DNA of 38,412 nucleotides from a virus: the IMG/VR virus record IMGVR_UViG_3300045988_127166, positions 1-38,412 of that record; one strand, 5' to 3'. Below are positions 20,216 through 36,961 of the stretch, piece by piece. The position numbers and the translations under genes are program-made. The notes under the pieces were generated by a model. It had not been told where the DNA came from, ran no database searches, and worked only from the letters and a program-made list of their open reading frames with translations. Positions within the stretch are counted from its first letter, which is position 1. Each line of letters begins with the position of its first letter.

Positions 20216-20241
20216 TTCAACCTTCCTTTCTCGGCTCACAG

Positions 20242-20420
20242 GTTACAGGTTACGGTTTATACTATTACTTATATATTTTCTATTTCATCATCGTATCGAC
20301 GATGAAATTTTGTAAAATTAAAAGAATATGACTTTAACCGTAACCTACCGTAACCGCCAGTATTTACAAGGCTTTGAACCGTAACCCGACACCGTAACTC
20401 GCCGTAACCCAAAGCGTAAC
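20242..20420. repeat. 179-bp inverted repeat, left copy (IR-L): GGTTACGG/CCGTAACC iteron array around an AT-rich core
   Basis: The reverse complement of 20242-20420 equals 36727-36905 at every base by manual comparison. Confidence 0.9.
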
Positions 20421-20463
20421 CGGAGCACGTTTTTGGTACTTAAGTACTATTTTTTATTTTTGA

Positions 20464-20476
20464 CTCACAAAGTCAT
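20464..20476 (-). promoter_or_regulatory. Distal operator-like site (atgactttgtgag)
   Basis: Shares 10 nt (atgactttgt) with operator O2 of the switch region. Lies between the last early gene and IR-L. Confidence 0.35.
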
Positions 20477-20528
20477 CCTCATTGATCACAGTGTTTGAAC
20501 CGTAACCCGGACACCTACATCACAACCA

Positions 20529-20717
20529 CTATTTGTACCTGCGCCCCGACCGTTTATGTTCAAATTCGATCCTCCCAACCACTTCAAAACCAACCATGGC
20601 TGCAGCATCTCTGATCAGGTGGATCAGACTGTGAACCTGTTTTTCTTCTCTGCTGATCTCAGCAATCGCCTTTGAAGCTGTCGGATCAGGATAACCTTCT
20701 ATGTTCTTTCCGCTCAT
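20529..20717 (-). CDS. Small conserved phage protein (EGYPDPTA motif), function unknown
   Basis: 62 aa, AAGGAAGG RBS, last ORF of the early operon. Confidence 0.6.
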   Translation of the reverse strand: MSGKNIEGYPDPTASKAIAEISREEKQVHSLIHLIRDAAAMVGFEVVGRIEFEHKRSGRRYK

Positions 20718-20745
20718 TTTTTATACCTTCCTTGAAATTAACTTT

Positions 20746-20874
20746 TCAAATATCACACCCGTCATTGTCAAAATTCATGCACCCTGATGCTGCCCTCACT
20801 GCACACAGAGCTGAGAGGAAGAGTGCACCCAAACCGCACCCCATACAAACCATACAGACCACTAAAAATTTCAT
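20746..20874 (-). CDS. Possible 42-aa hydrophobic Cys-rich peptide (not in the ORF track, <60 aa)
   Basis: My translation is MKFLVVCMVCMGCGLGALFLSALCAVRAASGCMNFDNDGCDI. GGAAGAG lies ~7 nt upstream. It fills the primase-to-next-gene gap on the coding strand. Confidence 0.35.
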   Translation of the reverse strand: MKFLVVCMVCMGCGLGALFLSALCAVRAASGCMNFDNDGCDI

Positions 20875-20891
20875 TCTTACACTCTTCCTTT

Positions 20892-22772
20892 CTAAGCCCT
20901 AACGAAGATCCTTGTGGGCTTTCCGTTGATTTTTTTTACAATTACCTCTGTATTTAACCGTTTGTTCAACTGCTTACTGAACACGATATTGGACATCGGC
21001 TGCATAGCATTTTCCTGACAAAATACCAAATACATCCGGTATACGTCGGAAGTAGCCTCATTGATGATATAGCTTTCATCATATTCTGCCAGAAATGCTA
21101 TGATGGGGTTGTTCTCTTCTTCATAGTCCTTCACCTGCTTGTCAACCTTCTCTGACTTTGTGAAGCACTGGTTGGTAAGGACTCTTTTCAGTCCCTGTAT
21201 TCCCAGTGCAATCAGATATTCCAGTGATTCCTGACTGATCAGCTTATACTTGATAAAAGGATCATAGTCCGGCGCATCCTTGCTGAACTGTGCGTTGAAC
21301 GGAATGATTACCAATCTTCTGAGTACGGCTCCGGTCTTGTCCCTCATTCTGGGGATGTCATTGGCAGAGAACAGCAGTTTGATATAGGGGTTAAACTCAA
21401 AGGGATCCTGTCCTTTTCGCTCTGCCTTGATCCGGTTGCCCGTGACCACCTTCTTGAACATGGCCACCTGCGCACCCTGCAGGAAGTCGTCCCCGATATC
21501 ATCACCGATGTTGGCCAGTTTTCCAAACATCATGGAAGTGCTGAATCTGTCCCCGAGCTCTTTCAGATCAAGCGCTGATGTATTGATGTCCCCAAGCACA
21601 GCCTTGATGCAGTCAAGGAAGGTACTTTTACCGTTTGCTTTATCACCAGTCAGTACAAACGCCTTTCCCAGTTCATTCCTCCGATAGAAGCAATAACCAA
21701 TACACTCTTCCAGTAGCAGCCGGATCGCCGGATCATTACAAGCCAGCTTATTTAGAGTTTTATCTGCCAGTTCTGAATAAGCTGCTGGATTATAGTCCCA
21801 TGGTATTTTATTGGTCACCACAATATCCGGAGAAAAGGGGAGCATCTGGTCTTCTGCCACATCATAAATTCCATTCCTGAATGCTATGTACCGGGCATCT
21901 GCCGGGGTGACCGCCTCACAGACAAGGTTCAGATATTTCAGAACCTCTTTTCTCTTGGCATCTGACAGGTTTGGAATGTGGTGAATCATGGCTGCCTCAA
22001 TGTCCCGGTAACCGTTCTGGTACACGCCATCCTTATAGATATGCAGGTTCCCATTGATGGTAACAATATGCTGCGTGTTCTTCATATAATTGGCAAATTT
22101 ATCGAACAGGAACTGCGCCCCATTGAAGAATATGGGCTTCTTGAAAGCGTCATCTCGCAGGATCACTTCCAGTTCTTCATCTGACAACGGCTCCGGCAAC
22201 ACCCATTTATTAATGATCCGGATTGTCTCTCTCGTTTCCTCAACCGTGAAGTCATTACTCTGCAGTGTCAGGATATAATTGAACAGCTCCTGATTCCTGC
22301 CGTCCCCGGCCTGCATGGTGAGGAAGGGCATTTCATGTTTTACCGGGAAAAACCACTTAGGGACTTCCTGATATTCTTCCCCTTCGTCAATGTCCCACTC
22401 AACGAAACGCTCCTGCCCCTTTACTTTCAGAACCTCGTAGGTATCCTTAAATCCAACCTTAATATCAGCAGTCAGACCAATCGCCAGTGAACAGTGTGTC
22501 CTGCAGCCCTGCACCTGTGAATTTTTGAATATGAAGTGCTTTCCTCTGCTCGTACAGATCACCTTACACCGCAACTGCAGGTCTTCAACAATGTTCATCA
22601 TAAGTTCAGCCTGTTCCGTATCGTCAATGTCAATAAACATCGTATCTGTGGCAAGGATCCCGGCAAACTCAGGAAGGTTTTTCACCTGTTCATAGGTCTT
22701 GAAGTCTGTTCTACCTTTGAACTTCTCTATACATTTCTTATCTTTCGTTTCTACATAACCTTTATATAGCAC
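20892..22772 (-). CDS. Primase-helicase (prim-pol-like N-terminus plus D5/P4-type SF3 helicase)
   Basis: Walker A VLTGDKANGKST, Walker B-like LANIGDD, C-terminal winged-helix-like tail. GTG start behind a GGAAGG RBS. Confidence 0.85.
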   Translation of the reverse strand: MLYKGYVETKDKKCIEKFKGRTDFKTYEQVKNLPEFAGILATDTMFIDIDDTEQAELMMNIVEDLQLRCKVICTSRGKHFIFKNSQVQGCRTHCSLAIGLTADIKVGFKDTYEVLKVKGQERFVEWDIDEGEEYQEVPKWFFPVKHEMPFLTMQAGDGRNQELFNYILTLQSNDFTVEETRETIRIINKWVLPEPLSDEELEVILRDDAFKKPIFFNGAQFLFDKFANYMKNTQHIVTINGNLHIYKDGVYQNGYRDIEAAMIHHIPNLSDAKRKEVLKYLNLVCEAVTPADARYIAFRNGIYDVAEDQMLPFSPDIVVTNKIPWDYNPAAYSELADKTLNKLACNDPAIRLLLEECIGYCFYRRNELGKAFVLTGDKANGKSTFLDCIKAVLGDINTSALDLKELGDRFSTSMMFGKLANIGDDIGDDFLQGAQVAMFKKVVTGNRIKAERKGQDPFEFNPYIKLLFSANDIPRMRDKTGAVLRRLVIIPFNAQFSKDAPDYDPFIKYKLISQESLEYLIALGIQGLKRVLTNQCFTKSEKVDKQVKDYEEENNPIIAFLAEYDESYIINEATSDVYRMYLVFCQENAMQPMSNIVFSKQLNKRLNTEVIVKKINGKPTRIFVRA

Positions 22773-22777
22773 CGTTC

Positions 22778-22948
22778 TTACCTTCCTTTTCTGACACAGC
22801 CACTATGAATGAACAGGTGTGTCTTTCTCCGAGTTTTGACATATTCAACGTCAGGAAAATCAGACGCATAGATCTGCCTGTCACATATCGGACAGTAAAC
22901 CTTCCCACCCATCGCATTAAACTTGTATCTCGCTGTTATCTTATCCAT
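22778..22948 (-). CDS. 56-aa zinc-ribbon protein (not in the ORF track)
   Basis: My translation is MDKITARYKFNAMGGKVYCPICDRQIYASDFPDVEYVKTRRKTHLFIHSGCVRKGR. GAGGTG RBS. It fills the polB-primase gap. CPxC...HSGC motif. Confidence 0.55.
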   Translation of the reverse strand: MDKITARYKFNAMGGKVYCPICDRQIYASDFPDVEYVKTRRKTHLFIHSGCVRKGR

Positions 22949-22967
22949 GTCTTCACCTCGCCCCTTC

Positions 22968-24809
22968 TTACACTAAAATCCCGAAATCCTTTAAACGCTT
23001 CTTGGCAAGGTTGATATACCACGCCTTATCTAAGTTTTCCGGGACACCCACGCCCACTACAGAATCATTGAAGATAAAGCAGTGATCCGGTGTATCCGCA
23101 AACTTTTCCGGTTTTCCACGCTTACCCCCACACTTTAAAATCCTGCCGTCGTCTGGATCATTGGATGCAAACACCCGATACGACTTGTAAAAATACTGTC
23201 TGGCGGCGGTATATTCATACCATTGCTTGATCTTCCGGACACCGGATTGCTTCAAGACTCTTCCACCATGTTCGTGCTGCACCCACTTATAATTTTCAGA
23301 TAGCTTTACCACTTTCTGGAATTTGATCAGTTCCGTACACTTTCTAATGGTCACTTCAACCGGGGTCTTATGTACCATATATTCAACCAACGCCTCATTC
23401 ACTATGGGAAGGTCATTATCAATCGGGGACAGTTCTTTCACATACGCCCCTTTGCGTTCAACCTTTCCTTCTGCATCTATCCAGAGGTAATTGTTCACAT
23501 CCTTCTGGTAAATCTCAGCGATAGTATCAAGCCCGAGAGTAATATTGCACTTCTCTGTAGAACAACGCTGTTCCCACTCCCAACAGATATCATCAACCGT
23601 GTCAAAGGCTTCATCCGTGTCCGGAATCCGGATAATAAGACCATCCGTGTTGCTCTGCAGCAGTTCAAATCCCGGTACTGCCTCCAAGTGTTCAATCAGG
23701 TCAATAAGCATGAGTTGACCGTTGATACACATACAGTTATTATTACGGGGATCGTATGCCGGGTTGAGAGGATCCTTCATAGCTCCGGAAAGTGCATTCA
23801 GCAGCTTTTTATAGGGAGCCTGCTCCTTCTTTTTTCCTTGGGCTTTCAGTGCCATTCTCGTATTATACACAAGATGGTAGTTATCATTTCTGGCTGCTCT
23901 TGTAACCAGATCCCATGCGATCAGCATTGACGGGTAATAAGACCCTACATCGACATGGAGAATTAACCCGGTAGCATGGATGGGCTTTTCCGTAGCCCCG
24001 TGCACACCACCGAACCCAAATACGTGAGGGATCCCGGCCACCATCATCTTAAGTGATTCTTTTTTGTAAAATTCTTCTTTCAGCCAGTAATCATTTCCCC
24101 GGTGTGCTGCCAGCTTCTGCTTGATTTCTGTACGCTTCTGCTCAAACCACCTCATCACACCACTGTACTTTTTTAACCGGATACAGGGGAGAAAGAAGTA
24201 ATCAAATTCATCGTTGAAATCCGTCCTCACGCACCCAAGCACCTGCGCTGTGATACGTGCCTCCGTGTATCCGATCATCTTCAAAGGAAGAGAGAACGCC
24301 CTCACAACCCCGATCTGTGCCTCGAACTCCGCTTTTCTCTGAATGAACACTTCAATCGTCTGCTCCACATCGTGACGGCAGTAAAAAACAGTCTGCTGGA
24401 TCTCCTTTTCTGTCAGTTTTCGATCAATGTTAAAAGGAATCTCTGTCTCTTTGATATTAGAACCAAGGAACCCTTCCAGTGTTTTCAGACCTTTGGGTGG
24501 GTTCGGCATCACATCATAGTTATTTAATTGAACTTCGTTCAATAATCGGCTGAACTGCCACGGCTCACGTCTGTCAACAATGATCCAGTCATTCAGTTCT
24601 TTTGGATTCAGTCCACAAAGAATTGCTTTCAGAATATATTGGTCATAGTGACGACTGTTGTAACCTACCCATATGTCGTGCCTATTTGCCTCATATAAGG
24701 CTTCTAACTCTTCCGGGCTATTAATTATCACGTGTTCCTGTCTGTTGGTCACATCAATGACCACAACAAGCCAATCCTCCTTGAAAACCTCAAAGTCATA
24801 AAACAGCAC
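22968..24809 (-). CDS. Family B DNA polymerase with 3'-5' exonuclease domain
   Basis: ExoI YDFEV, ExoII YNSRHYD, ExoIII YCRHD, motif A DVGSYYPSM, motif B KKLLNALSGA, motif C-like SNTDGL. GTG start. Confidence 0.8.
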   Translation of the reverse strand: MLFYDFEVFKEDWLVVVIDVTNRQEHVIINSPEELEALYEANRHDIWVGYNSRHYDQYILKAILCGLNPKELNDWIIVDRREPWQFSRLLNEVQLNNYDVMPNPPKGLKTLEGFLGSNIKETEIPFNIDRKLTEKEIQQTVFYCRHDVEQTIEVFIQRKAEFEAQIGVVRAFSLPLKMIGYTEARITAQVLGCVRTDFNDEFDYFFLPCIRLKKYSGVMRWFEQKRTEIKQKLAAHRGNDYWLKEEFYKKESLKMMVAGIPHVFGFGGVHGATEKPIHATGLILHVDVGSYYPSMLIAWDLVTRAARNDNYHLVYNTRMALKAQGKKKEQAPYKKLLNALSGAMKDPLNPAYDPRNNNCMCINGQLMLIDLIEHLEAVPGFELLQSNTDGLIIRIPDTDEAFDTVDDICWEWEQRCSTEKCNITLGLDTIAEIYQKDVNNYLWIDAEGKVERKGAYVKELSPIDNDLPIVNEALVEYMVHKTPVEVTIRKCTELIKFQKVVKLSENYKWVQHEHGGRVLKQSGVRKIKQWYEYTAARQYFYKSYRVFASNDPDDGRILKCGGKRGKPEKFADTPDHCFIFNDSVVGVGVPENLDKAWYINLAKKRLKDFGILV

Positions 24810-24833
24810 TGCTCCTGTTCTCCTTCCCTTTCT

Positions 24834-24858
24834 GGTACAGGGCTATTCACCCTGTACC
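24834..24858. other. Perfect 9-bp stem hairpin (ggtacaggg-7 nt-ccctgtacc) in the DUF669-polB intergenic region
   Basis: Read directly from the sequence. No adjacent T-run on the coding (minus) strand. Confidence 0.7.
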
Positions 24859-24900
24859 ATCATTTTAGTTAAGTTTATTTAACTCTACAAGTAAAAATAA

Positions 24901-25347
24901 TTAAAGATCATAGACTTCCTTGATGCTGATGCTGTTGAAAGTATCGGCATCGTAGTCGATTTCCAACTCTACCTTACCCTGAATCTCTTCATAAATATCA
25001 AGCACATTGTCCACGAAAGCATTGTATCCTGCAAATTCCGGAAGGGTATTAGTTGCAAACTTCTCAAGCAAAGTAAGCACGGACTGAATCATGGCACCGT
25101 CATTTTTCGTACCATAGATCACACGGTTCATAAACAGGTTACGATTCTTGAACTCACCTTCCTTGATCTTGCATTGCATTTTGAACATAGGTCTGTGGTC
25201 TTTGGTTTCACCGACCTCCATCTTTTCAACACTTACGATATAAGTACCCTTCGGGACATCAGAAAAGTTGTTCTTAGAATCCTCCACATCTTTCTGTAAA
25301 CCCTGTAGATCCACCGCTTCATCAATCTTACTGAAATCTACTGCCAT
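24901..25347 (-). CDS. DUF669-family phage protein (ssDNA-binding-like)
   Basis: ...DVPKGTYIVSVEKMEVGETKDHRPMFKMQCKIKEGEFKNRNLF is the DUF669 pattern. Pairs with the upstream AAA_24-type ATPase. ATG behind AAAGGTGA. Confidence 0.7.
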   Translation of the reverse strand: MAVDFSKIDEAVDLQGLQKDVEDSKNNFSDVPKGTYIVSVEKMEVGETKDHRPMFKMQCKIKEGEFKNRNLFMNRVIYGTKNDGAMIQSVLTLLEKFATNTLPEFAGYNAFVDNVLDIYEEIQGKVELEIDYDADTFNSISIKEVYDL

Positions 25348-25396
25348 AATTTTCACCTTTTTAACCTTTCAATATGTTAATAATAAAATACCTTTG

Positions 25397-26722
25397 TTAT
25401 CCTCTCACCCTTCTCGGTCTTCCGGTAGGTGTGGGTGCGCTTTCTTTATGCTCCGGCGCTACTTCCGGCGCTGATTCCGCTGTTCTGTCTTTACGTCTTC
25501 TCACCTTTACGGGTTCTTCCGGTGGATTCATTGTATCAGCAGCCGGATCAGGTTCCGGGTTTCCTGCCTGTGCCAGTCTCTTAACGCCTGCACCAAACTC
25601 TTCCTTGCTGATTACCTTCATGACCTCAACACCATCAACAATCAGATCGACAGTATCACCTTTGTGCTTCATGATATAATTATCCTCACCCGGCACATAA
25701 AAATAGGTATCAGCGTCCAGCGTCACAGATTCAGAATTTACATTTTCTTCCTGCCTGTCTGCACTCTGCGCTGCTTTTCTTTCTCCCCTCGTTCTTCTGG
25801 GTGGTGTTTCCAACTCCGGCTTGGATACAGAGTCTACAGCCTCACTTGCCTCATCAAAAGGTACTTCATCCCGGTCACCGGCAGCCTTGTCGATTGCCTC
25901 ATTGACCTTATTCTGGTAATCAGCCATCTTTTCATTGTTTTCCTGTACTACTTCATCATGGGTCTTACGGGTTCTTGGTACCTTGGTCGCTTCCTCTGCA
26001 GCCTTTTTTCCACCTCTCGCTCTTCTTCCGTTGGCATCTGGCTTTTCCAGATCCGAAGCGACCGCACTGTCGGCCTGACTCATTTCTGCATCTGACTTAT
26101 ATTCTCCGATCTCGTAAAAGTTCCGGATCTTGTCTGCCACATAATTCAGATCATTGTCAATGGCATAAGTCGGGAACATCCCAAGTGGAGATTTCACAGT
26201 ATCCTTTCCACTGTTCTGAGTAAAGAAATAATATTTTCCTTCATTTACACCTGTCCTGAGTACTACCGTAAACAGTCCTTCAATGGTGATCTTCTCACGT
26301 AACAGCTTGCCAATCAGCTTCACAGTAGTTAGCCCATTATCCAACGTTTCAAGATGGGTCATATAGGCGACAATCACATCATCGGGTAAGTCTTTACATA
26401 CTTCGATGATTTCAAAATAGTTTGCACCAAAATCATTGTACTTGTCCCATCCAGATTCTTTGATACGATTCATATAAGGTACTGCAAGAATGTACTGGAA
26501 ATCATCCACCACAATCAGCTTTTTCCCTGACGCTACCTGTGCCTTCATATAACGGGTAATCTTACTCGCATCTGTCACATTGTTCAGCATTTCAAAATGA
26601 CTTCTGAACGGTAATGGTTTACCGACCGGATTTACAACTGCTGTTGTCGCAGGGTCGCAGTTTCTCAGGCTGGTACTTTTTCCTGTACCAGATTCACCCA
26701 TAATTAAAAGCATTTGTGCCAT
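25397..26722 (-). CDS. AAA_24/RecA-like ATPase with a long C-terminal extension
   Basis: MAQMLLIMGESGTGKSTS Walker A, VVDDF Walker B. The last ~200 aa are charged and Pro-rich with one short globular stretch. Start at the ATG behind AAGGGGGA. Confidence 0.75.
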   Translation of the reverse strand: MAQMLLIMGESGTGKSTSLRNCDPATTAVVNPVGKPLPFRSHFEMLNNVTDASKITRYMKAQVASGKKLIVVDDFQYILAVPYMNRIKESGWDKYNDFGANYFEIIEVCKDLPDDVIVAYMTHLETLDNGLTTVKLIGKLLREKITIEGLFTVVLRTGVNEGKYYFFTQNSGKDTVKSPLGMFPTYAIDNDLNYVADKIRNFYEIGEYKSDAEMSQADSAVASDLEKPDANGRRARGGKKAAEEATKVPRTRKTHDEVVQENNEKMADYQNKVNEAIDKAAGDRDEVPFDEASEAVDSVSKPELETPPRRTRGERKAAQSADRQEENVNSESVTLDADTYFYVPGEDNYIMKHKGDTVDLIVDGVEVMKVISKEEFGAGVKRLAQAGNPEPDPAADTMNPPEEPVKVRRRKDRTAESAPEVAPEHKESAPTPTGRPRRVRG

Positions 26723-26723
26723 T

Positions 26724-26894
26724 TTACTTATCCCCCTTCTTCTGTCTTCTGAACATCCCAAGGAATGTTTCAGCTAAAGATTTCTTTACCTTACCACTTG
26801 TCTTGATTGCCGCTTTTCTGTGAAAACCTGCAAAATCAGGTTTATTGTGGTATGAATAGCAGCTTCTTTCTCTGTGCTTCTGCGCTGTTGCCAT
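26724..26894 (-). CDS. Possible 56-aa basic protein (not in the ORF track)
   Basis: My translation is MATAQKHRERSCYSYHNKPDFAGFHRKAAIKTSGKVKKSLAETFLGMFRRQKKGDK. TAATG coupling to the HD gene. Its stop lies 1 nt before the next ATG. Confidence 0.4.
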   Translation of the reverse strand: MATAQKHRERSCYSYHNKPDFAGFHRKAAIKTSGKVKKSLAETFLGMFRRQKKGDK

Positions 26895-27535
26895 TATTCT
26901 TCACTCCCTTCTTCTGTGCAGCCCTCTGTCACCCTGCTTGACCACAGATCCGCATAGTGCAGGATCAGGTACAGTGGTGTTTCGTGTCCTTTGACCCCAT
27001 AATTGGCTGTTTCATATAATCCGTCATGATATCTGATTGCAAATTCTTCATCTTCCGTCAGGTCAATGAAGAACGTAGCCAGCTTAATGCTACGTGTGGC
27101 GTGGTCAATGGGAAGCAATACCGGATTGCGCTTATACGGCTTTGCCTCGGACACCTTACCTGATTTCAGCACATTTGGTACATACATCTGTTTTCCATAA
27201 TCACCGCATTTTCCAAGGTCATGCAGTGCTGCAGCGATAGTAACTGAATCACTGATCTCCTCAAATCTTTCATCTCCTAACAGTGCACGTCCAACACTCT
27301 CTGCCGCCACCATTACATTGCGAGTGTGCTGCACAAGTCCAAATTCACAGCACAAATGATTTCCACCACTACAGGGTGCTGAGAAAAATCCAATATCCTC
27401 CATATACTGAATCAGACCCTTTATCCCCACACGCCCTGTCGCCAGCAGACGATCTGTCACAAATTTCTTGTTATCAAGCTCCTTTGAATTTGCCATTGCA
27501 TCTGTGGTCGCATCTTCTTTTTTCTTTGTTGCCAT
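26894..27535 (-). CDS. HD-domain phosphohydrolase
   Basis: AALHDLGK and RYHDG motifs. Confidence 0.75.
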   Translation of the reverse strand: MATKKKEDATTDAMANSKELDNKKFVTDRLLATGRVGIKGLIQYMEDIGFFSAPCSGGNHLCCEFGLVQHTRNVMVAAESVGRALLGDERFEEISDSVTIAAALHDLGKCGDYGKQMYVPNVLKSGKVSEAKPYKRNPVLLPIDHATRSIKLATFFIDLTEDEEFAIRYHDGLYETANYGVKGHETPLYLILHYADLWSSRVTEGCTEEGSEE

Positions 27536-27539
27536 CTTC

Positions 27540-27902
27540 TCATTCTCCTTTTCCTAACTTTATTTTCCAACGCTGCTGTTCCATAATATTGGATACATAC
27601 CAAGCATTAAGAACACTTTTATGTTCATTGAACTCCTTGAACTTTTCAAAATCTTTGGGGTATAGTAAAATTCCATATCCTCCGGCCTCCTGTATCATTG
27701 ACAGGTGTTTTAACTGCAACAGGGACGGGGAACCTCCTTCGGCCTTGACCTCGATCCCCATGAACACCCCACGGTCACAGACTATCAGGTCAGGTATTCC
27801 GCTTTTTGTAAAACCACCGCCACCCCAGTATTTCAGGAACCACGCCTTTCTTTCTTCAAGGTACTTTTTGACCTTATTCTCGAATTGTTTTTCTGCCGCC
27901 AT
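27540..27902 (-). CDS. VRR-NUC domain nuclease
   Basis: GIPDLIV...GIEVKAEGG..S..Q is a PD-(D/E)xK pattern. Commonly paired with an SNF2 helicase in this replication module. ATG at 27902 behind GAAGGG. Confidence 0.75.
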   Translation of the reverse strand: MAAEKQFENKVKKYLEERKAWFLKYWGGGGFTKSGIPDLIVCDRGVFMGIEVKAEGGSPSLLQLKHLSMIQEAGGYGILLYPKDFEKFKEFNEHKSVLNAWYVSNIMEQQRWKIKLGKGE

Positions 27903-27904
27903 CT

Positions 27905-29837: not shown

Positions 29838-29842
29838 TACGG

Positions 29843-30769
29843 TCACTCCTTCATACCTTCGATCTTGATGCCAGTGCATTCCTCAAATATATCAGGGTCA
29901 AAATTTGGAAGATCTTTGATGCAGCCTTTTTCCTCATCTGTCAATCCGTCCCACCAGAGCTGACCGCTCTCGGATTCATCAAGTTCCTTCAAATAGCCGC
30001 CGGTTGTCTCGTATGTCGGATATGTGGTCTTTTCCTCATCCGTCATATCCCCCTCAGGAATCCATTCAACGACCTTTTTGGGGATGTGGGCTAATAACCG
30101 TCTTGCCTTTGAGAACAACCAGTCATTCCATGTCCATGACGAAGGTTTATCAAAAAACATGACCGGCTGTGCTATTGTACAGAAGCATCCTGTGGATCGG
30201 TCACAAGTGTTCCAGTCCCCGGTGTTCCTGTCCCCGGTGTTGCAGTCCCCGGTGTTCCTGTTCCCGGTGTTCCAGTCCCCGGTGTTCCTGTCCCCGGTGT
30301 TCCTGTCCCCGGTGTTGCAGTCCCCGGTGTTCCTGTTCCCGGTGTTCCAGTCCCCGGTGTTCCTGTCCCCGGTGTTCCTGTCCCCGGTGTTGCAGTCCCC
30401 GGTGTTCCTGTTCCCGGTGTTCCAGTCCCCGGTGTTCCTGTCCCCGGTGTTGCAGAGACCTGTGCAATCTTTCCCAATATTTACGATAGTCAGCAGCTCT
30501 GACCATGGGATCTCACGCACAATCTTAATTTTGTTTGTACAGGACTTATTACCATCTGTGGCAACATCTCCCAGTGCAATGACCTCTGCCACTTTGTTAT
30601 TAGAATCGAAGTCATAATAATCGAAGCAATCAGATGCCTTTTCGCAGAAGTGAAAACCTCTATTACAACAGGATGGCGTTACATCCTCTTCAAAAATCTT
30701 TCCGACCTCATACTGAAAGTTCCTACAAGTCCAATCAGGTTTAAACACTTTATATCCTTTTACGCTCAT
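29843..30769 (-). CDS. Phage protein with a conserved Cys-containing N-domain and a central NTGDx pentapeptide-type repeat array
   Basis: N-terminus KGYKVFKPDWTCRNFQYEVGKIFEE...CCNRGFHFCE, then ~17 consecutive five-residue units (NTGDR/NTGDW/NTGNR/NTGDC), then an acidic Trp-rich C-terminus. Confidence 0.75.
   Translation of the reverse strand: MSVKGYKVFKPDWTCRNFQYEVGKIFEEDVTPSCCNRGFHFCEKASDCFDYYDFDSNNKVAEVIALGDVATDGNKSCTNKIKIVREIPWSELLTIVNIGKDCTGLCNTGDRNTGDWNTGNRNTGDCNTGDRNTGDRNTGDWNTGNRNTGDCNTGDRNTGDRNTGDWNTGNRNTGDCNTGDRNTGDWNTCDRSTGCFCTIAQPVMFFDKPSSWTWNDWLFSKARRLLAHIPKKVVEWIPEGDMTDEEKTTYPTYETTGGYLKELDESESGQLWWDGLTDEEKGCIKDLPNFDPDIFEECTGIKIEGMKE
30206..30452. repeat. Tandem repeat: 15-nt units (gtgttNNNgtYcccg) x ~16.5, organised as 75-nt higher-order units
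   Basis: 30266-30340 and 30341-30415 are identical. The flanking units are partial copies of the same pattern. In frame within CDS 29843-30769. Confidence 0.9.
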
Positions 30770-30771
30770 AT

Positions 30772-31197
30772 CTACACCGCCTCTTCTAAGGGAATCGAAA
30801 TCCCTTCAATTTCTGCAAATCTTGTCGCATTAATGAAGTACGACCACCTGTGTTCACTGGTATGGATCGCATACCCCCAAGGGAAGACCCCCTGCTGCAG
30901 CCCCTGTGCGATAGTGTTCTTATGCTTGTGCATCAGTCTCGCCACATCAGCAATCTGTAAAGTCGGGATCCCTCCGTTCCTGATCGCTTTCACCATCTGA
31001 ATAGGTTCATCCTTCTCAAAGTAATCAGCAGGGAGTCCCAGTGCGAGGGCTATCTCGGTCTGCCCTTTTTCTGTAGGAACCTGCTTACCTGACAAATACT
31101 GACTGATGCTCGCCTTACTCTTACCAGTCAGGCCAACCACCTGCATCTGTGTGATCCCCAGTTCTGACATTGCCTTTTTCAATTTCTGGTTGAACAT
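30772..31197 (-). CDS. Xre-type HTH protein with a second C-terminal HTH-like segment
   Basis: ELGITQMQVVGLTGKSKASISQYLSGKQVP, and a C-terminal LQIADVARLMHKHKNTIAQGLQQGVFPWGY (excisionase/MerR-like). Confidence 0.65.
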   Translation of the reverse strand: MFNQKLKKAMSELGITQMQVVGLTGKSKASISQYLSGKQVPTEKGQTEIALALGLPADYFEKDEPIQMVKAIRNGGIPTLQIADVARLMHKHKNTIAQGLQQGVFPWGYAIHTSEHRWSYFINATRFAEIEGISIPLEEAV

Positions 31198-31232
31198 TTC
31201 TTAACTCCTTTCTTGTGTGCAGTTAATTTAAT

Positions 31233-31439
31233 TTAACTACCCGTATAAAAATTTTTCGTTTCATCAGATAACTTCTCGATCCGACTCAACCCATCTACTC
31301 CAAAATACACCACTGCTTTCGCTTCGGCTGGAAGCTCAAGATCTGAATTCTGCAGGAGAGTGAAGAGGTTCTTCAATTCCCCGGCCAGTGTATTGATCTG
31401 AAATAAGGCGATCTCTCTATTATTTTCCAAGCTGTTCAC
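31233..31439 (-). CDS. Hypothetical early protein
   Basis: 68-aa ORF on the coding strand, overlapping the upstream ORF end. Confidence 0.45.
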   Translation of the reverse strand: MNSLENNREIALFQINTLAGELKNLFTLLQNSDLELPAEAKAVVYFGVDGLSRIEKLSDETKNFYTGS

Positions 31440-31623
31440 CTTCCTCCCTTAATGGAAACCAGTTTTTGTTGTACTGCTTCCTGACTCTCATTCTGACCCC
31501 ATCCCGGCTGATAACGGAAAACCGCTGTTTGGATGCTTTCAGTTCCCTGATGTATTCATCAGCTTCATTGACAGAATCAAATATCAAAATTTGTTCAATC
31601 CAAGCTGCTTCAATGTGTTTCAT
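31420..31623 (-). CDS. Hypothetical early protein
   Basis: MKHIEAAWIEQ... ATG behind an AAAGGAG RBS. The longer track ORF lacks an RBS and overlaps the upstream gene. Confidence 0.5.
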   Translation of the reverse strand: MKHIEAAWIEQILIFDSVNEADEYIRELKASKQRFSVISRDGVRMRVRKQYNKNWFPLREEGEQLGK

Positions 31624-31640
31624 CTGTCTTTTTCTCCTTT

Positions 31641-32963
31641 CTAACAAGACCCACCATCTGCCCCATGAAAAGCACCAACAGGATATTGCCAATTTTCTAC
31701 ATAAATGTCGTTTACAGTAAAATCACCTGTCGTGATTGAATGAATTGCTTCTTTATCATCCCAACAGACACAGGATTCAGCACATCCAACAAATTCGTCA
31801 AGATTCTTTTTATTATCCAGTGTGAACCCAAGAACTTCTTCATCATTCCTTAGTGCAGCATAATCATCAGGAAAAAGTTCTTTTACTCCGGCAAATAACC
31901 GGGGTGTTGAAAATATGCACATCATGCAACTGCATCTGTTCCAACCTATCCTGTAACACGGATGTGGGTTTATATGATGTCGTTTCAGCAATTCCCACAC
32001 ATCCTTTTCAGAATAATCAATGCAACACCGCCATTGATGAACAATTCTGTGTGCCTTGGCTTCTGCATTGGTGCGATGTATTTCCATTTCATTGTACTTT
32101 GACCGTCCGGCTGATTCTCCACGGCGTTCACCTGAAACAATCAAGATTTTCTTGTCACGCTTGGTTTCTTCAAGGTTGGCTGTCACACTGTCCTGAACTG
32201 CTGCTTTTAAGTTACCACTGCACCAACGCCCCGAATGTGTACCACCCTTTGCCGGGAATTTATGTCTCTTACCGCCCAGTTTTTCAAGTTCACCAAGGCG
32301 GTCAAGATTACTTACAATTGTATCTGCAACACATATTTTCAGATATGCGGAACACCAACGACGTGACAGATCACCAGTTTTTGCCGGGAACTTCATTCTA
32401 TAACCATACTGTTTCAGAAGTTCTTCCATTTCTTCTGCTACCTGTTCTTTCAGTTCCTTGCATTTCAGATAATTACCTGACAATTTACACTGCTTAACAT
32501 CCCCGGTATTAGGGTCAATCCATTCAATAGGTTCTGATGCACCTATACGATATAATTCACCAAAGAAGCCGTTCACCCTGTATGAAACCCTTAATTTGAC
32601 ACCTTCTGCATCAGCTAATGCTTTCACATAATTCTGTGTACATTTCCAATCCATTCTTCTTGAAGGGTGTCCACCATCAATATCATGATGCCAAAACTCT
32701 ATTTTTTCTTTTGGTACACCTAATTCAAGGAGTTTCAAATAACAGGCAATTGAATCTTTTCCACCTGAAATTAGTACAACAATCAAATCATATTCTTCTA
32801 GTGGTAACAATTCAGGAAGATATATTTTCTTAAAATGTTCAGAATCCTTTCTTCCTTCCACTCTTGGTTTTATCCTTATATTTTTGCCATATATCGGTAA
32901 ATCTTGCTTTCCTAATGTCACTGGTGTTGCCTTTGTACAATCTGAATCTTTTATAAATTCCAT
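31641..32963 (-). CDS. PP-loop ATPase / PAPS-reductase-family protein
   Basis: PP-loop VVLISGGKDS. Two copies of a KFPAK.G..S.RWCS..LK motif. Cys-rich C-terminus. Confidence 0.7.
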   Translation of the reverse strand: MEFIKDSDCTKATPVTLGKQDLPIYGKNIRIKPRVEGRKDSEHFKKIYLPELLPLEEYDLIVVLISGGKDSIACYLKLLELGVPKEKIEFWHHDIDGGHPSRRMDWKCTQNYVKALADAEGVKLRVSYRVNGFFGELYRIGASEPIEWIDPNTGDVKQCKLSGNYLKCKELKEQVAEEMEELLKQYGYRMKFPAKTGDLSRRWCSAYLKICVADTIVSNLDRLGELEKLGGKRHKFPAKGGTHSGRWCSGNLKAAVQDSVTANLEETKRDKKILIVSGERRGESAGRSKYNEMEIHRTNAEAKAHRIVHQWRCCIDYSEKDVWELLKRHHINPHPCYRIGWNRCSCMMCIFSTPRLFAGVKELFPDDYAALRNDEEVLGFTLDNKKNLDEFVGCAESCVCWDDKEAIHSITTGDFTVNDIYVENWQYPVGAFHGADGGSC

Positions 32964-33002
32964 GCTTGTCCTTTCTTACTAAACTTACTTGGATTATTAA
33001 GG

Positions 33003-33653
33003 TTACCATTTTGTACTACACCCATCACCCAACCTTTTCACATTCGCCTGATAAACGATGAAATCCTCATATGTCGGTAGTGGCTTACCTCTTCCACGTT
33101 CATGCGAGAAAATATAGTCAATCATGCCATAGACATCCTGCAAGGTTGTTTCCTTCGGCTTAATGAAGCATGCCGGAAGCTGCACACCAAACTGATCACA
33201 GATCTTCTTGACTGCTGTTGCGATCTCAGTGGGGGATGCACCCTGCTCTTTCATCGTTTCCCGAGTAACTTTGATCAGGTTGACCACCTCACCAACAGAG
33301 GTTGCCTTTGGAGTATAACCCGGTGCCTCATAATGACCTGTTTTCCGGATTGCCGGAAGCACTTCACTGGTGACCCAGTGCTTGAACTTCTTCGCACTCG
33401 GCAGCTTACTCGATAAGATCAGGGAATACATACCAGACTCATTGATAACCACCATGCGCTGTGTTCCTCCAAGGGTGTCACAATTCGTTACCCCCTTATC
33501 TTCACCATCAACATGATCTACCAATGCCTTACGAGTATTTACATATCCAAGTGCGTCTGCAATGTCTTTACCTACGAACCATGGTACACCGTCAATAGTG
33601 ACTGTCCGGATGTTTCCGAACTCTGAGTTACTAAATACCTGTAATTCATTCAT
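33003..33653 (-). CDS. Bro-N domain antirepressor-like protein
   Basis: LQVFSNSEFGNIRTVTIDGVPWFVGKDIADALGY.NTRKAL..HVD is the Bro-N signature. Confidence 0.8.
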   Translation of the reverse strand: MNELQVFSNSEFGNIRTVTIDGVPWFVGKDIADALGYVNTRKALVDHVDGEDKGVTNCDTLGGTQRMVVINESGMYSLILSSKLPSAKKFKHWVTSEVLPAIRKTGHYEAPGYTPKATSVGEVVNLIKVTRETMKEQGASPTEIATAVKKICDQFGVQLPACFIKPKETTLQDVYGMIDYIFSHERGRGKPLPTYEDFIVYQANVKRLGDGCSTKW

Positions 33654-33798
33654 TTTCCTTATTTTCTCCTTCCTGCTTTACTCTGTTCTGCTCTTCCATA
33701 GTTTCAGCGATCCCATACAGCCGACCTTTCTGAAAATCTGACATCTTGGGAACCGCCTCTAAGATGGTCTCAAGAGCTTTCTTTTCCTTTTCTGACAT
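33646..33798 (-). CDS. Small acidic hypothetical protein
   Basis: MSEKEKKALETILEAVPKMSDF... behind an AAGGAGG RBS. Confidence 0.5.
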   Translation of the reverse strand: MSEKEKKALETILEAVPKMSDFQKGRLYGIAETMEEQNRVKQEGENKENE

Positions 33799-33924
33799 TA
33801 TAGCTACCTCCTTCCTTTCAGATTTTTCAATTAAGCATTTCTTCCTCTGACTTTGCTGATAACCTGCCATCATCAGATGTAAGGCAGTCACCCCTTACAT
33901 GACGGCCATTTCTGGCCGTTTCGG

Positions 33925-34542
33925 CTATTCCTCTTCCATCTCCATTTCACAGTCCATACAGGAGATCCTGACCACTTTTGTTGCCCGGACGATGGTGCCG
34001 CAGCAAGGACAAACATATTTCCGGGAACTCTGTGAAGATGTTTTCTTTGTCTTGATATTCGCTGCTGAATCCCTGTAAATCCCAAACCCTGTATCACCAA
34101 GGCCGCTGATGAACTGTTTTGCCTCTTCATTCAGGTGGGTGATCGTCCACCCATACTTGGGATGCTGCTCAATAATAAGACCATGCTGTTCAGCCACTTC
34201 TTTGAACTTTTTATTGTGATATGTACCACCCCGGCTGGTATCCTTGACCCCATTCTGCAGGTTCCAAAGATGAACCATCTCATGGAGCAGTGTTCCGCAA
34301 AGTTCCTCGAATGTCCTTGTGAGATGCTCTGCACAGATGTTAATTTCATAGTACCCTGCGTCTTTATCTTCATTTCCGGCTTCTTTCCATGCTTTCCAAG
34401 ATGTACACCAGCCATAAGCCCCTTTTGTGCTGTCCGGACTGACTGTGATTACCGGATTCTGCAGATCACCGCCATAGAAACGATCATTAAATTTTGAAAA
34501 TAACTTTTCAAGTTTATCAATTACCGGTTTTAATGATTCCAT
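33925..34542 (-). CDS. SprT-like zinc metallopeptidase with C-terminal zinc ribbon
   Basis: LLHEMVHLWN (HExxH) and C-terminal CPCCG...CMDC. Start at MESL, 9 nt behind GGAAGG. Confidence 0.75.
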   Translation of the reverse strand: MESLKPVIDKLEKLFSKFNDRFYGGDLQNPVITVSPDSTKGAYGWCTSWKAWKEAGNEDKDAGYYEINICAEHLTRTFEELCGTLLHEMVHLWNLQNGVKDTSRGGTYHNKKFKEVAEQHGLIIEQHPKYGWTITHLNEEAKQFISGLGDTGFGIYRDSAANIKTKKTSSQSSRKYVCPCCGTIVRATKVVRISCMDCEMEMEEE

Positions 34543-34543
34543 A

Positions 34544-34807
34544 TCAGTCATCCTTCCTTTCTCTCTTAAACAGCCAGTCTGTTTCATCTTCCGTACAAAC
34601 CCCACAATATTCGTCTGTTCTGCTGAAATAATACTCAACCCCATAAAACTGCTTCATCGCCAACTGATATATTTCCCACTGCGCCTGACATTGCCGTGCA
34701 TCATCTCTTTCTCTTTTCTCAAGGTAAAAATCCCAAGCAATAACGCATTCTTCTAATCGACTACCAAACTCTGTTTTCAGGAACTTTTCTTTATTTAACT
34801 TCATCAT
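34544..34807 (-). CDS. First gene of the leftward early operon, function unknown
   Basis: 87-aa ORF directly downstream of the PL-like promoter. Confidence 0.55.
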   Translation of the reverse strand: MMKLNKEKFLKTEFGSRLEECVIAWDFYLEKRERDDARQCQAQWEIYQLAMKQFYGVEYYFSRTDEYCGVCTEDETDWLFKRERKDD

Positions 34808-34850
34808 GGCTTTTATCCTCTCTTTTTATGTTCTGTTTGCTTTGTTTCTT

Positions 34851-34934
34851 GTGACTATGTCATTACTATAAATGACTTTGTCACAGTTGTCAATAGTTTT
34901 TTGTGACTTTGTACATTTTTTCTGACTTAGTCAC
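34851..34934. promoter_or_regulatory. Four operator sites, consensus (G/A)TGACTTTGTCAC
   Basis: gtgactatgtcat 34851-63, atgactttgtcac 34872-84, gtgactttgtaca 34903-15, ctgacttagtcac 34922-34. All lie in the divergent intergenic region. Confidence 0.7.
34865..34893 (-). promoter_or_regulatory. Leftward early promoter (TTGACA-17-TATAGT)
   Basis: -35 at 34893..34888 and -10 at 34870..34865 on the minus strand. Operator O2 lies in the spacer and O1 just downstream. Confidence 0.65.
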
Positions 34935-34942
34935 ATTTTCTG

Positions 34943-34971
34943 TTGACGTTAAATGAATTTAACTATATAAT
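34943..34971 (+). promoter_or_regulatory. Rightward promoter (TTGACG-17-TATAAT)
   Basis: -35 at 34943-48, -10 at 34966-71, about 27 nt upstream of the ATG at 34998. Confidence 0.65.
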
Positions 34972-34997
34972 TGGTGACAAGAAAAGAGGTGAAACTA

Positions 34998-35729
34998 ATG
35001 AACAATGAAACATTGAATGTCTGTGGGACAGAAATGGCGATCAGAGAATACGCCGGTCAAAGGGTAGTAACTTTCAAGGATATTGATAAGGTACACAACC
35101 GTCCGGACGGAACAGCAAGGTGGCGCTTCCATGACAACAGAAAACGTTTTATTGAGGGCGTGGATTTCTTCAAAATAACTCCGCAAACCCTTGAAAACAC
35201 TGAATTGTGCGAAAAACGGACATTTGGAATTGAAACTGTAAGTCCACGAGGAACTATCTTCCTTACAGAACAGGGATATCTAATGATTGTAAAGTCCCTC
35301 ACGGATGATCTGGCATGGGCGGTACAACGGAAACTGGTCAGTTCGTATTTCAAAATTAAGGAAGAAAAGAAGCACGCTCTGTCCGAAGAATATGCGCTGC
35401 GTCTTGCCGAGCTGGTAAACAATACACCACCAGAGAATATGCCGATCATCAGAGAGATATTTGCACAGGCTGGGATCCATATACCGGAACACATTACTAC
35501 CTGCAGCACTTATCAAGGTACAGATGTCATAACTAACTTCCTGCAGGGTGTAAATGTGGTAGGCAGACCGTCCAGCGATGTATATGCTGAATATAGAGAC
35601 TGGTGCTCTATGAACGGTACTGTGCCGGTATCGAATATCGCTTTTTCCAAGATCGTGAATAAGATCCTTGCAACCCACGTTAAACCAATGAAAGTATGTG
35701 GAGTCTGCCGCAGAGTATTTATACATTGA
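34998..35729 (+). CDS. ORF6N/KilA-N-like DNA-binding protein with a primase-C-terminal-like winged-helix tail
   Basis: AIREYAGQRVVTFKDIDKVHNRPDGTARWRFHDNRKRFIEGVDFF is ORF6N-like. The C-terminus SDVYAEYRDWC...VSNIAFSKIVNK parallels the primase C-terminus. ATG behind AAGAGGTGA. Confidence 0.6.
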   Translation: MNNETLNVCGTEMAIREYAGQRVVTFKDIDKVHNRPDGTARWRFHDNRKRFIEGVDFFKITPQTLENTELCEKRTFGIETVSPRGTIFLTEQGYLMIVKSLTDDLAWAVQRKLVSSYFKIKEEKKHALSEEYALRLAELVNNTPPENMPIIREIFAQAGIHIPEHITTCSTYQGTDVITNFLQGVNVVGRPSSDVYAEYRDWCSMNGTVPVSNIAFSKIVNKILATHVKPMKVCGVCRRVFIH

Positions 35730-35749
35730 AAAGAGGTGAAAACTACATA

Positions 35750-36133
35750 ATGAATGAACGAATCAAAAAGCTCAGAAAAGAGTTAGATTTAACACAGCAG
35801 GAATTTGCTGACAAAGTGGGTATACCCAGAGACAGCATAGGTGGCTATGAAATCGGAAGAAGAAGCCCGAGTGAAGCTGCAATATCACTCATATGCACTA
35901 AATGTAATGTAAACGAAGAATGGCTGCGCACTGGTCAGGGTGAAATGTTCCTCCCTTCGACCAGAGAAGAGGAAATTGCCAAACTAACCAAGAAGCTGCT
36001 GGATGAAGAGACAGATTCCTTTAAGAACAAAATGATATCTGTTCTCGCAAATCTGACAGATAAGCAGTGGGAAACACTGGCAGAGATAGCACAGAAATTC
36101 AAAGAAGAATGTGAAAATGAAAAGGCAGACTAA
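35750..36133 (+). CDS. Xre/CI-type HTH regulator (candidate repressor)
   Basis: IKKLRKELDLTQQEFADKVGIPRDSIGGYEIGRRSPS. AGAGGTGA RBS. Confidence 0.75.
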   Translation: MNERIKKLRKELDLTQQEFADKVGIPRDSIGGYEIGRRSPSEAAISLICTKCNVNEEWLRTGQGEMFLPSTREEEIAKLTKKLLDEETDSFKNKMISVLANLTDKQWETLAEIAQKFKEECENEKAD

Positions 36134-36135
36134 TT

Positions 36136-36237
36136 TTAGTCTGCCAGAAACGTTTTGATAAGCTGGTAAATGTACTTAAGATACTTTTCATTGTCAAGCT
36201 CATCCAGCATTTTAATGATAAGTGTTTTATAGTCCAT
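36136..36237 (-). CDS. Possible 33-aa ORF convergent with the Xre gene (not in the ORF track)
   Basis: My translation is MDYKTLIIKMLDELDNEKYLKYIYQLIKTFLAD. GAGGGGTGG RBS. Its stop lies in the same palindrome as the Xre stop. Confidence 0.35.
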   Translation of the reverse strand: MDYKTLIIKMLDELDNEKYLKYIYQLIKTFLAD

Positions 36238-36339
36238 ACTATCCACCCCTCTTCAACGCACATTCTAAAGTAGCGATAGTTATATAATAGAACATTTGTT
36301 CGATTATTGCAACGGTAATTTAGGGAAAGGAAGATTTCC

Positions 36340-36711
36340 ATGAACGAATTTTCCAAAAGACTACGGGGTCTCATGGAAGAACATGACGTTACAGCCACTG
36401 ATGTCGTACGCCTGTCAAAGCGATATGACAGCAAAGGTATATCCAAGGTAAATATGTCACAGTGGCTGTCCGGTTCATGTATTCCTAACTCTGCAAACAT
36501 CTATCTGCTGTCAAGGGTGTTCAATGTGACTCCTGATTATCTCATGGGTAAGAAAGGGGTAAGTGCTTCACAGAAGCCCTTGTCAGATGATGTATTCCAG
36601 ATGATAGACCTGTACTCCAAGTTAAATGCAGAGGGTAAGGCTGCGGCGCTGCAACGACTGTCAGAACTTACCCAGCTAAAGCAATATGCACTCCCAAAGA
36701 AGGAAAAATAG
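36340..36711 (+). CDS. Second Xre-type HTH regulator
   Basis: SKRLRGLMEEHDVTATDVVRLSK...SKVNMSQWLSGSCIPNSANIYLLSRVFNVTPDYLMG. Ends 15 nt before IR-R. Confidence 0.7.
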   Translation: MNEFSKRLRGLMEEHDVTATDVVRLSKRYDSKGISKVNMSQWLSGSCIPNSANIYLLSRVFNVTPDYLMGKKGVSASQKPLSDDVFQMIDLYSKLNAEGKAAALQRLSELTQLKQYALPKKEK

Positions 36712-36726
36712 CTCTCTTACTTACCT

Positions 36727-36905
36727 GTTACGCTTTGGGTTACGGCGAGTTACGGTGTCGGGTTACGGTTCAAAGCCTTGTAAATACTGGCGGTTACGGT
36801 AGGTTACGGTTAAAGTCATATTCTTTTAATTTTACAAAATTTCATCGTCGATACGATGATGAAATAGAAAATATATAAGTAATAGTATAAACCGTAACCT
36901 GTAAC
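36727..36905. repeat. 179-bp inverted repeat, right copy (IR-R)
   Basis: Exact reverse complement of 20242-20420. GGTTACGG at 36738, 36761, 36792 and 36802, AGTTACGG at 36748, CCGTAACC at 36892, and one extra CCGTAACC just outside at 36908. Confidence 0.9.
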
Positions 36906-36917
36906 TACCGTAACCTG

Positions 36918-36950
36918 AAAAAAAAGACACCCAACCGCTGCAACGGTTGG
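36918..36950 (-). terminator. Terminator-like hairpin oriented for leftward transcription
   Basis: ccaaccg-6 nt-cggttgg stem. On the minus strand it is followed, after 5 nt, by TTTTTTTT. Confidence 0.4.
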
Positions 36951-36961
36951 ATGCCTGCTAC

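Follow-up and report, generated by a model that had tools for sequence, protein, structure and literature searches.

What is the function of a non-coding sequence that a temperate gut phage carries twice, in exact inverted orientation? The question is raised by IMG/VR virus record IMGVR_UViG_3300045988_127166, analysed over its whole length of 38,412 nt (hereafter the window), in which two 179-bp inverted repeats (IR-L and IR-R; Table 1) bracket a 16.3-kb segment and face outward onto the genes of a late activator and a tyrosine integrase. An initial annotation had offered three readings of this layout, namely a regulatory or looping module bound by one protein and co-controlling both outward genes, a substrate for inversion of the segment, and a duplicated origin. 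The last was the best supported, by the anatomy of iterons and AT-rich core, by the homology of a neighbouring protein to P4-family initiators and by covariation between the two; an architecture conserved with lineage-specific iterons, conservation of both copies and gene conversion between them add to it. On balance, the repeats would be two copies of an iteron origin module, that is, an initiator-binding module, of the type described for staphylococcal pathogenicity islands (SaPI) and phage P4, homogenised by gene conversion. Such a layout has known precedents and is most likely not a new kind of element.

A repeat search over the whole window returned an inverted pair at 20242-20423 and 36724-36905 (182 nt, 99% complementary, 16,300 nt apart), and reading of both strands gave exact identity over 179 nt, with similarity lost abruptly at all four edges. 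The perfect repeats first described were thus borne out, as was the statement that nothing else of such length recurs, the only other long repeats being tandem 15-nt units (30147-30509) within the gene of a pentapeptide-repeat protein and a direct repeat of 55 nt at the termini (1-55 = 38358-38412), the signature of a circular assembly. The gene context also agreed with the initial annotation, both copies reading in the same sense toward their respective outward genes. The late operon (302-20239, minus strand) is headed by the activator; the early operon (20529-34807, minus strand) encodes SNF2, VRR-NUC, HD, AAA and DUF669 proteins, a 613-aa protein and a D5-like primase-helicase; and the plus strand carries the genes of an ORF6N protein, two Xre-type proteins and the integrase. 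Divergent promoter-like sites were found at ~34865-34971 by promoter scan.

More familiar explanations of a long repeat were not borne out. A tRNA scan found no tRNA, so that the repeat is not att- or tRNA-related, and in integrated relatives the attachment site lies on the far side of the integrase gene, near window position ~189 and outside the repeat. A composite transposon, or the terminal inverted repeats of an insertion sequence, was rejected, as no transposase domain was detected in a Pfam scan of 20 open reading frames (ORFs; 19754-38062) and the repeat flanks showed no direct (target-site) duplication. Positions 20000-21000 had no match to cultured phages by blastn, and an exact search of IMG/VR with the central palindrome of the repeat also returned none.

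Read toward its outward gene, each copy consists of six direct iterons, an 82-bp AT-rich core and two abutting iterons of opposite orientation. The direct iterons form two clusters of GGTTACGG, read as CCGTAACC on the complementary strand. The window has 22 occurrences of CGTAAC where 7.2 are expected, and 17 of the 22 lie in or beside the two copies. Of all 80-bp duplexes in the 38.4-kb window, the core has the lowest stability (nearest-neighbour dG -85.7 kcal/mol, against a mean of -106.5 with a standard deviation of 5.7). A SaPI origin lies downstream of rep and has 6 to 12 iterons arranged about a central AT-rich region, no fewer than two on either side, with the two sides in opposite orientation (PMC9371898). 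Each copy in the window contains eight iterons per 179 bp, plus one extra beside it, with six on one side of the AT-rich centre and two opposite-pointing ones on the other, and the module likewise lies downstream of the putative initiator gene. The module therefore fits the SaPI description point for point except for the distance from the gene: the SaPI origin follows rep immediately, whereas the module stands about 0.4 kb on in the window (IR-L ~470 nt downstream of the primase-helicase gene with a 62-aa ORF between, IR-R 14 kb away) and a median of 1.4 kb on in relatives. It also differs from a SaPI origin in abutting a late-activator gene and in being present twice, and the element that carries it is a full temperate phage, not a satellite.

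Table 1. Positions in the window of the repeats, their parts and the genes around them
Feature	Position	Strand	Remarks
IR-L, left 179-bp module copy	20242..20420	.	Between 62-aa ORF/primase-helicase gene and late-activator gene
Two abutting opposite-orientation iterons, outer end of IR-L	20241..20255	-	
AT-rich core of IR-L	20256..20337	.	80% A+T; candidate DNA-unwinding element; palindrome ~20283-20308; family-invariant AAAATATA box
Inner array of IR-L, six direct iterons	20338..20421	+	CCGTAACC or one-mismatch variants; spacing 10-13 nt within two clusters
Extra iteron with partial repeat context GAACCGTAACCCgGACAC	20496..20513	+	Inward of IR-L, outside the perfect repeat
IR-R, right module copy	36727..36905	.	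Exact reverse complement of IR-L; between Xre-like gene (36340-36711) and integrase gene
Six-iteron array of IR-R	36726..36809	-	Mirror of 20338-20421
AT-rich core of IR-R	36810..36891	.	Rank 1 among least stable windows
Opposite-orientation iterons, outer end of IR-R	36892..36915	+	Includes one extra iteron (36908-36915) just beyond the repeat
Late activator (sigma-70-region-4/DUF1492/ArpU-RinA-like)	19754..20239	-	Start codon directly after the module; in relatives the start is called at this ATG (20215)
Primase-helicase (P4-family/D5-like, superfamily 3), candidate initiator	20892..22772	-	C-terminal ~60 residues align to the C-terminal domain of SaPI5 PriRep5
ORF6N-domain protein, candidate second iteron-binding protein	34971..35729	+	First gene of the rightward immunity-side operon
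Intrinsic terminator, strong	36925..36956	-	14-bp stem then T8; between IR-R and integrase gene
Tyrosine integrase	37046..38062	+	140 nt beyond IR-R; in integrated relatives host DNA starts past its 3' side

The protein predicted upstream of IR-L in the early operon matched the model TIGR01613 (phage/plasmid primase, P4 family) with 199.8 bits, the cut-off being 108.7, and the Pfam families D5_N, DUF5906 and Pox_D5. Its sole solved homologue was PriRep5 of SaPI5 (PDB 7OLA; E=1.2e-36), to which it aligned through residue 605 of 626, inside the C-terminal domain of PriRep5. SaPI Reps are self-loading superfamily 3 (SF3) helicases in which a C-terminal winged helix recognises the iterons (PMC9371898), and in the P4 family the C-terminal winged-helix domain of the primase-helicase binds origin repeats (PMC4234260). 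The phage thus shares with SaPI an initiator candidate that is an SF3 primase-helicase, homologous to PriRep5 and thereby to a protein with a C-terminal winged helix.

Related loci were collected by scanning IMG/VR and GTDB with the primase-helicase, which gave ~125 loci with 40-91% amino-acid identity, in Lachnospiraceae, Faecalibacterium and other Clostridia. In 72 of these, an iteron cluster was present downstream of the primase gene. The architecture shared by the 72 comprises direct iterons in an array, AT-rich DNA that ends with the invariant AAAATATA(A/T)AG box, and iterons of opposite orientation; iterons in both orientations were observed in 43 of 49 related modules. The iteron word itself changed with lineage (GTTACGG, GGTAACG, GGTTACA, GTTACACA, GTTCAAG, GGTAGCA, TGTGCAA and AGCTACA).

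Variation of the iteron word allowed a covariation test in 42 genomes dereplicated at 90%, in which the identity of a protein segment was scored by the area under the curve (AUC) for predicting a shared iteron word. The C-terminus of the primase-helicase (residues 566-624) was the best predictor among the tested segments, with an AUC of 0.91, followed by the helicase core (0.78), the N-terminus (0.77) and the late activator (0.73), although the latter is encoded physically closer to the module. With core identity regressed out, the C-terminus retained a residual AUC of 0.84 versus 0.62 for the N-terminus. Whole-protein identity of the early-region proteins did not track iteron type; only the C-terminus of the primase-helicase did. 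This covariation is support, not proof, of iteron recognition by the C-terminus. Since both copies carry the same iterons, one protein very probably binds both, and to that extent the idea of a module shared by one protein stands. The further idea that the copies co-control activator and integrase was not supported, as what follows the right copy in relatives is not the integrase gene but a variable accessory one, and in one lineage that copy is flipped.

Other candidates for a protein acting at the repeats were rejected. A terminase-binding (pac/cos) site was set aside because relatives with the same iterons had no similarity to the small (TerS) and large (TerL) terminase subunits of the window (tblastn, E<=1e-5). 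A site for autoregulation by the late activator was disfavoured, the activators being only ~31% identical among genomes with identical iterons. The ORF6N protein represents a different case. Its last 56 residues were 41% identical to the C-terminus of the primase-helicase (E=6e-10), so that the protein consists of an ORF6N domain fused to a paralogue of that C-terminus, with a nearly identical putative recognition helix. Several close relatives with both copies lack the gene, as do other two-copy lineages; it is therefore accessory, and was rejected as the conserved binder. The protein may nevertheless be regarded, from this resemblance, as a candidate iteron-binding regulator in lysogens.

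The two-copy layout was found in at least four lineages, with copies 99-100% identical in two of them, this one included. In this clade of Lachnospiraceae/Clostridia prophages, the first copy lies just upstream of the late activator, and the second upstream of the integrase or of accessory genes. Contig 3300035520_000467 possesses an inverted pair of its own (255 bp, 99.2% identity) built from a different iteron, GTTACACA, with one arm after the primase gene and the other before the integrase gene. In seven contigs of another group, the left module precedes the activator and the right one lies 0.55-1.05 kb before the integrase gene; the modules have the same outward-facing inverted orientation and are 70-76% identical, and iterons, AT core and AAAATATA box are kept in both. 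The GGTAACG lineage has its right module flipped to face away from the integrase gene, so that the copies are direct repeats, and in some relatives the left modules are nearly symmetric. As the layout occurs in several lineages and not just in the window, these comparisons indicate that the duplication arose long ago in a clade of Clostridia prophages and that selection has maintained it; they also point to homogenisation to near-identity in at least two lineages.

Variable accessory genes were observed between the right module, which they follow directly, and the integrase gene in five relatives (L213, L187, L233, L238 and L244). Their product is either a conserved protein of 124 aa or one of 183 aa that has a membrane anchor at its N-terminus, and neither had a Pfam assignment.

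That assembly might have created the second copy, as a chimera or by collapse or duplication of a repeat, deserved attention, as the window is a circular short-read assembly with a 55-nt terminal overlap and the repeat is longer than the k-mer length (k). Related contigs from other samples and assemblers were retrieved by exact-protein look-ups. Of these, 14 contained the left junction (primase, 62-aa ORF, repeat, activator) and 9 the right one (Xre, repeat, integrase), several of them being prophages within host contigs of 90-240 kb; both copies recur in about 25 independent assemblies. Some contigs end exactly at a repeat boundary, as a repeat longer than k would lead one to expect, and three long contigs carry both copies with the same four boundaries. 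A metagenome scan with a 40-nt core of the repeat added only two further contigs, both in the standard arrangement. Recurrence of both junctions with the same boundaries in many independent samples and assemblers, together with relatives whose left and right copies have diverged and can be resolved by any assembler, makes the chance of an artefact practically negligible.

Alignment of all copies showed boundaries identical throughout and at least four repeat haplotypes. In scaffold_86, three single-nucleotide polymorphisms (SNPs) relative to the window were common to both copies, and in scaffold_167 one; lying within ~20 nt of the unique flanks, these are properly phased. The sole recurrent difference between left and right was a 1-nt deletion beside the outer boundary in many left copies. 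Strain-specific SNPs common to both copies of one genome mean that the copies are homogenised by gene conversion in this lineage, that is, they evolve in concert. The initial annotation had inferred selection or ongoing gene conversion from the lack of divergence, and the alignment bears this out. Its "zero divergence" holds near the unique flanks, being strictly proven only up to ~55 nt from them, since short-read de Bruijn assembly cannot phase SNPs in the middle of the repeat.

Identical copies in inverted orientation could also recombine. If the repeats were the crossover sites of a programmed inversion switch, flipping of the 16.3-kb early/immunity segment would change the operon from which transcription enters the late activator and the one from which it enters the integrase gene. 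Both reciprocal inverted junctions do occur in public assemblies, but in only 2 of the 25 junction-spanning contigs (L008 and L030), the arrangement being standard in the other 23. In L008, a 707-bp contig with 1.6x coverage, the 3' end of the Xre gene is joined through the repeat to the late activator. The 179-bp repeat is longer than typical k-mer sizes, so that mis-joins are expected, both orientations being equally valid graph paths; where inverted repeats are identical and exceed k, the assembly graph alone cannot decide how the 16-kb segment is oriented. L030, a contig from a metagenome-assembled genome, joins primase, 62-aa ORF, repeat, integrase and host genes, and a ~50-nt deletion disrupts its 613-aa replication gene, which suggests that it is a decaying prophage.

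No invertase/resolvase or FLP-like domain was detected among the 20 ORFs scanned with Pfam, in which the only recombinase was the tyrosine integrase. Moreover, relatives with 70-76% identical copies or with copies in direct orientation cannot support inversion; as these keep the layout with diverged or direct copies, inversion is not the conserved function. The window family thus differs from Hin/Gin/Cin, shufflon and FLP/2-micron systems in having no dedicated invertase, in the scarcity of the inverted form and in not conserving the repeats as inverted sites. Inversion as proposed initially is thus weakly indicated by these two contigs, a programmed switch is very unlikely, and an occasional homologous crossover accompanying gene conversion is plausible.

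Several points weigh against an origin. The case is built from homology, anatomy and covariation; the pairs in the covariation test lack phylogenetic independence, and part of the signal may stem from physical linkage between the module and the 3' end of the primase gene. Paenibacillus phage Wanderer, a cultured phage with 48% primase identity, has a single module, between its primase and sigma-like genes, so that the second copy is not needed by the replication system as such. The module is also tied more tightly to the late activator than to the primase gene, the last iteron lying a median of 34 nt before the activator ATG (150 nt or less in 37 of 40) and the first iteron a median of 1406 nt after the primase gene. 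Finally, in one group of relatives a ribosome-binding site and an accessory gene directly follow the right copy, as in a promoter cassette.

The last two points lead to the main rival, in which the module is a portable regulated "middle" promoter/operator cassette that would time the late activator and, at the right copy, the accessory genes or the integrase. Its upstream iterons would bind an activator, the AT-rich region with its AAAATATA(A/T)AG box would be a -10-like element and the two downstream iterons would form an operator. The short spacing to the activator ATG fits this arrangement, as do seven contigs in which a ribosome-binding site and an accessory ORF of the same orientation lie within ~30 nt past the right copy, and in either paralogous copy, as in distant relatives, the invariant box immediately precedes the iterons of opposite orientation. 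However, a scan for sigma-70-type promoters inside the module gave only weak 9-of-12 matches and no good sigma-A consensus, and a purely directional role is at odds with the right copy flipped away from the integrase gene in the GGTAACG lineage and with left modules that are nearly symmetric. Furthermore, the iteron word tracks the C-terminus of the primase-helicase and not the late activator, and in anatomy the module is the same as a type of origin defined by experiment. The cassette is therefore rather unlikely as the explanation of the repeats.

Cassette and origin can nevertheless coexist in a dual-function element. By binding or melting the DNA at the iterons, the primase-helicase would then fire replication and gate the gene ~30 nt downstream, and in lysogens of this lineage the ORF6N protein would silence both sites; a combined origin and switch of this form is improbable. 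If true, the late activator on the left, and accessory genes or the integrase on the right, would be gated in this way, and late commitment would be physically coupled to origin firing. By analogy with the 2-micron plasmid, recombination of identical inverted origins may further give flip-flop isomers or double-rolling-circle intermediates.

Could the module act as RNA instead, as a structured terminator, antiterminator or processing element, or as a protein-binding RNA with repeated GGUUACGG? The divergent promoters at ~34865-34971 place both copies in sense at the ends of two divergent operons, and the 179-nt RNA folds more stably than shuffled sequences (-50 kcal/mol, z=-3.6). The predicted stems, however, consist mainly of opposite iterons paired with direct ones, plus the central palindrome, which is not conserved in relatives or in diverged right copies, and several upstream direct iterons have no pairing partner. 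No Rfam family matched inside the repeats, and the right copy is flipped in one lineage. An RNA element thus has little probability.

For the origin reading, a sequence of events can be proposed from homology and covariation. The primase-helicase, as a self-loading SF3 helicase, most likely recognises the iterons via its C-terminal winged-helix domain; it would then assemble on either side of the AT-rich core, melt the core and prime DNA synthesis, so that replication would start there. The left module probably also carries or gates the promoter or leader of the late activator, since it abuts the start codon of that gene in nearly all relatives. The second copy may be a second origin, or a second initiator-binding site that helps or limits replication, as proposed for oriR of phage SPP1 and crr of P4. 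In one variant, the initiator-bound right copy would stall forks as a barrier, in the manner of SPP1 oriR, and thereby trigger a switch to recombination-dependent concatemer synthesis; VRR-NUC/Hjc-like, SNF2, DUF669 and AAA proteins are encoded by the phage. In another, it would be an auxiliary site resembling P4 crr. As the copies are inverted and identical, an occasional crossover between them may flip the 16.3-kb segment as a by-product, as the two inverted contigs hint.

The view of the initial annotation that no standard siphophage feature explains the layout was too strong. In SPP1, oriL and oriR lie ~12-13 kb apart, have the same organisation and are both bound by one initiator; oriR adjoins moron genes and is proposed to be a fork barrier driving the theta-to-sigma switch (PMC6316719, PMC3485210). 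The window likewise has two origin-type regions, 16.3 kb apart, with repeats and an AT-rich unwinding element, and its second copy lies in a non-coding segment beside moron genes. The resemblance is functional and not one of homology: SPP1 employs the gp38 initiator with a DnaB-type helicase and its loader, whereas the window encodes the SF3 primase-helicase together with SNF2, VRR-NUC, DUF669 and AAA proteins. SPP1, moreover, is lytic, its oriL lies inside gene 38, and the two papers do not present oriL and oriR as a perfect inverted repeat or as evolving in concert (PMC6316719, PMC3485210). The record of Lactococcus phage phi31, also consulted, carries no origin annotation.

Alongside SPP1 oriL/oriR, the nearest precedent is P4, which needs two iteron-bearing regions, ori and crr; these are a few kb apart and are both bound by the alpha protein. 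The window shares with P4 the family of the initiator, by its TIGR01613 match, but the primase of alpha is of the Toprim type, the two systems differ in iteron sequence and in the arrangement of ori and crr, and, against the requirement of both regions in cis in P4, Wanderer shows that the protein family of the window can work with one module. In herpes simplex virus (HSV), with oriS, and in the yeast 2-micron plasmid, identical inverted repeats bracket a unique segment, are homogenised and recombine to give inversion isomers; in HSV an origin lies in the repeats, along with the sequences upstream of two different genes that face outward or inward. Such isomers are abundant in both, and FLP-driven in the 2-micron plasmid, whereas in the window family only 2 of 25 contigs had an inverted junction and the Pfam scan gave no dedicated invertase.

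Several observations were made beside these. Between the integrase gene and the right repeat, a strong minus-strand promoter-like site (37028-37000; TTGAAA-17-TATAAT with TG extension, 11 of 12) is followed, ~45 nt on, by the terminator at 36956-36925, which predicts a small RNA of ~75 nt (within 36917-37028, minus strand) divergent from the integrase gene. The region upstream of the integrase gene also contains inverted GGATGAAAT-type repeats, whose counterparts in relatives differ in sequence. The similarity of L030 to the window ends near position 189, which places the attachment crossover there. Close relatives were integrated at two host neighbourhoods, with SpoVAD/lipase genes or with WXG100/FtsK-SpoIIIE type VII secretion genes. 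Three prophages in host contigs (L011, L017 and L018) are deletion derivatives in which the tape-measure region is joined directly to the SprT-like gene; the deletion of ~25 kb, with two different endpoints, has removed the head, terminase, activator and replication genes and the left repeat, while the immunity genes, right repeat and integrase gene are retained.

In the early region, a type II hammerhead ribozyme (RF02276) was detected with Rfam at 33858-33926 on the minus strand, between the SprT-like gene and the next ORF of the leftward operon, with 41.5 bits over the full-length model against a gathering score of 37. The array at 30147-30509 consists of ~24 tandem 15-nt units, which encode the pentapeptide repeats of a DUF7666/Pentapeptide_2 protein (29843-30769); in relatives the gene varies in length or is missing, and several contigs break there. 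Also encoded on the minus strand are a SleB-type cell-wall hydrolase (Hydrolase_2; 27905-28513) and a 440-aa protein with a PAPS-reductase domain (31641-32963), the gene of which lies between the primase gene and the origin module instead in the relative L040.

Origins of prophages of gut Clostridia/Lachnospiraceae are essentially unmapped, and the analysis offers a recognisable signature for them, in which an iteron array, an AT-rich core and opposite iterons immediately precede the late-activator gene, as seen in 72 or more related phage or prophage loci, with the last ~60 residues of the primase-helicase as the candidate specificity determinant. For temperate phages, the analysis documents a two-copy layout of this predicted origin in which the copies clearly evolve in concert. 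The layout raises the questions whether the second copy serves as an origin, a fork barrier or a regulator, whether late commitment is coupled to origin activity, and whether a protein of the immunity operon, with a putative origin-binding domain, may control replication in lysogens.

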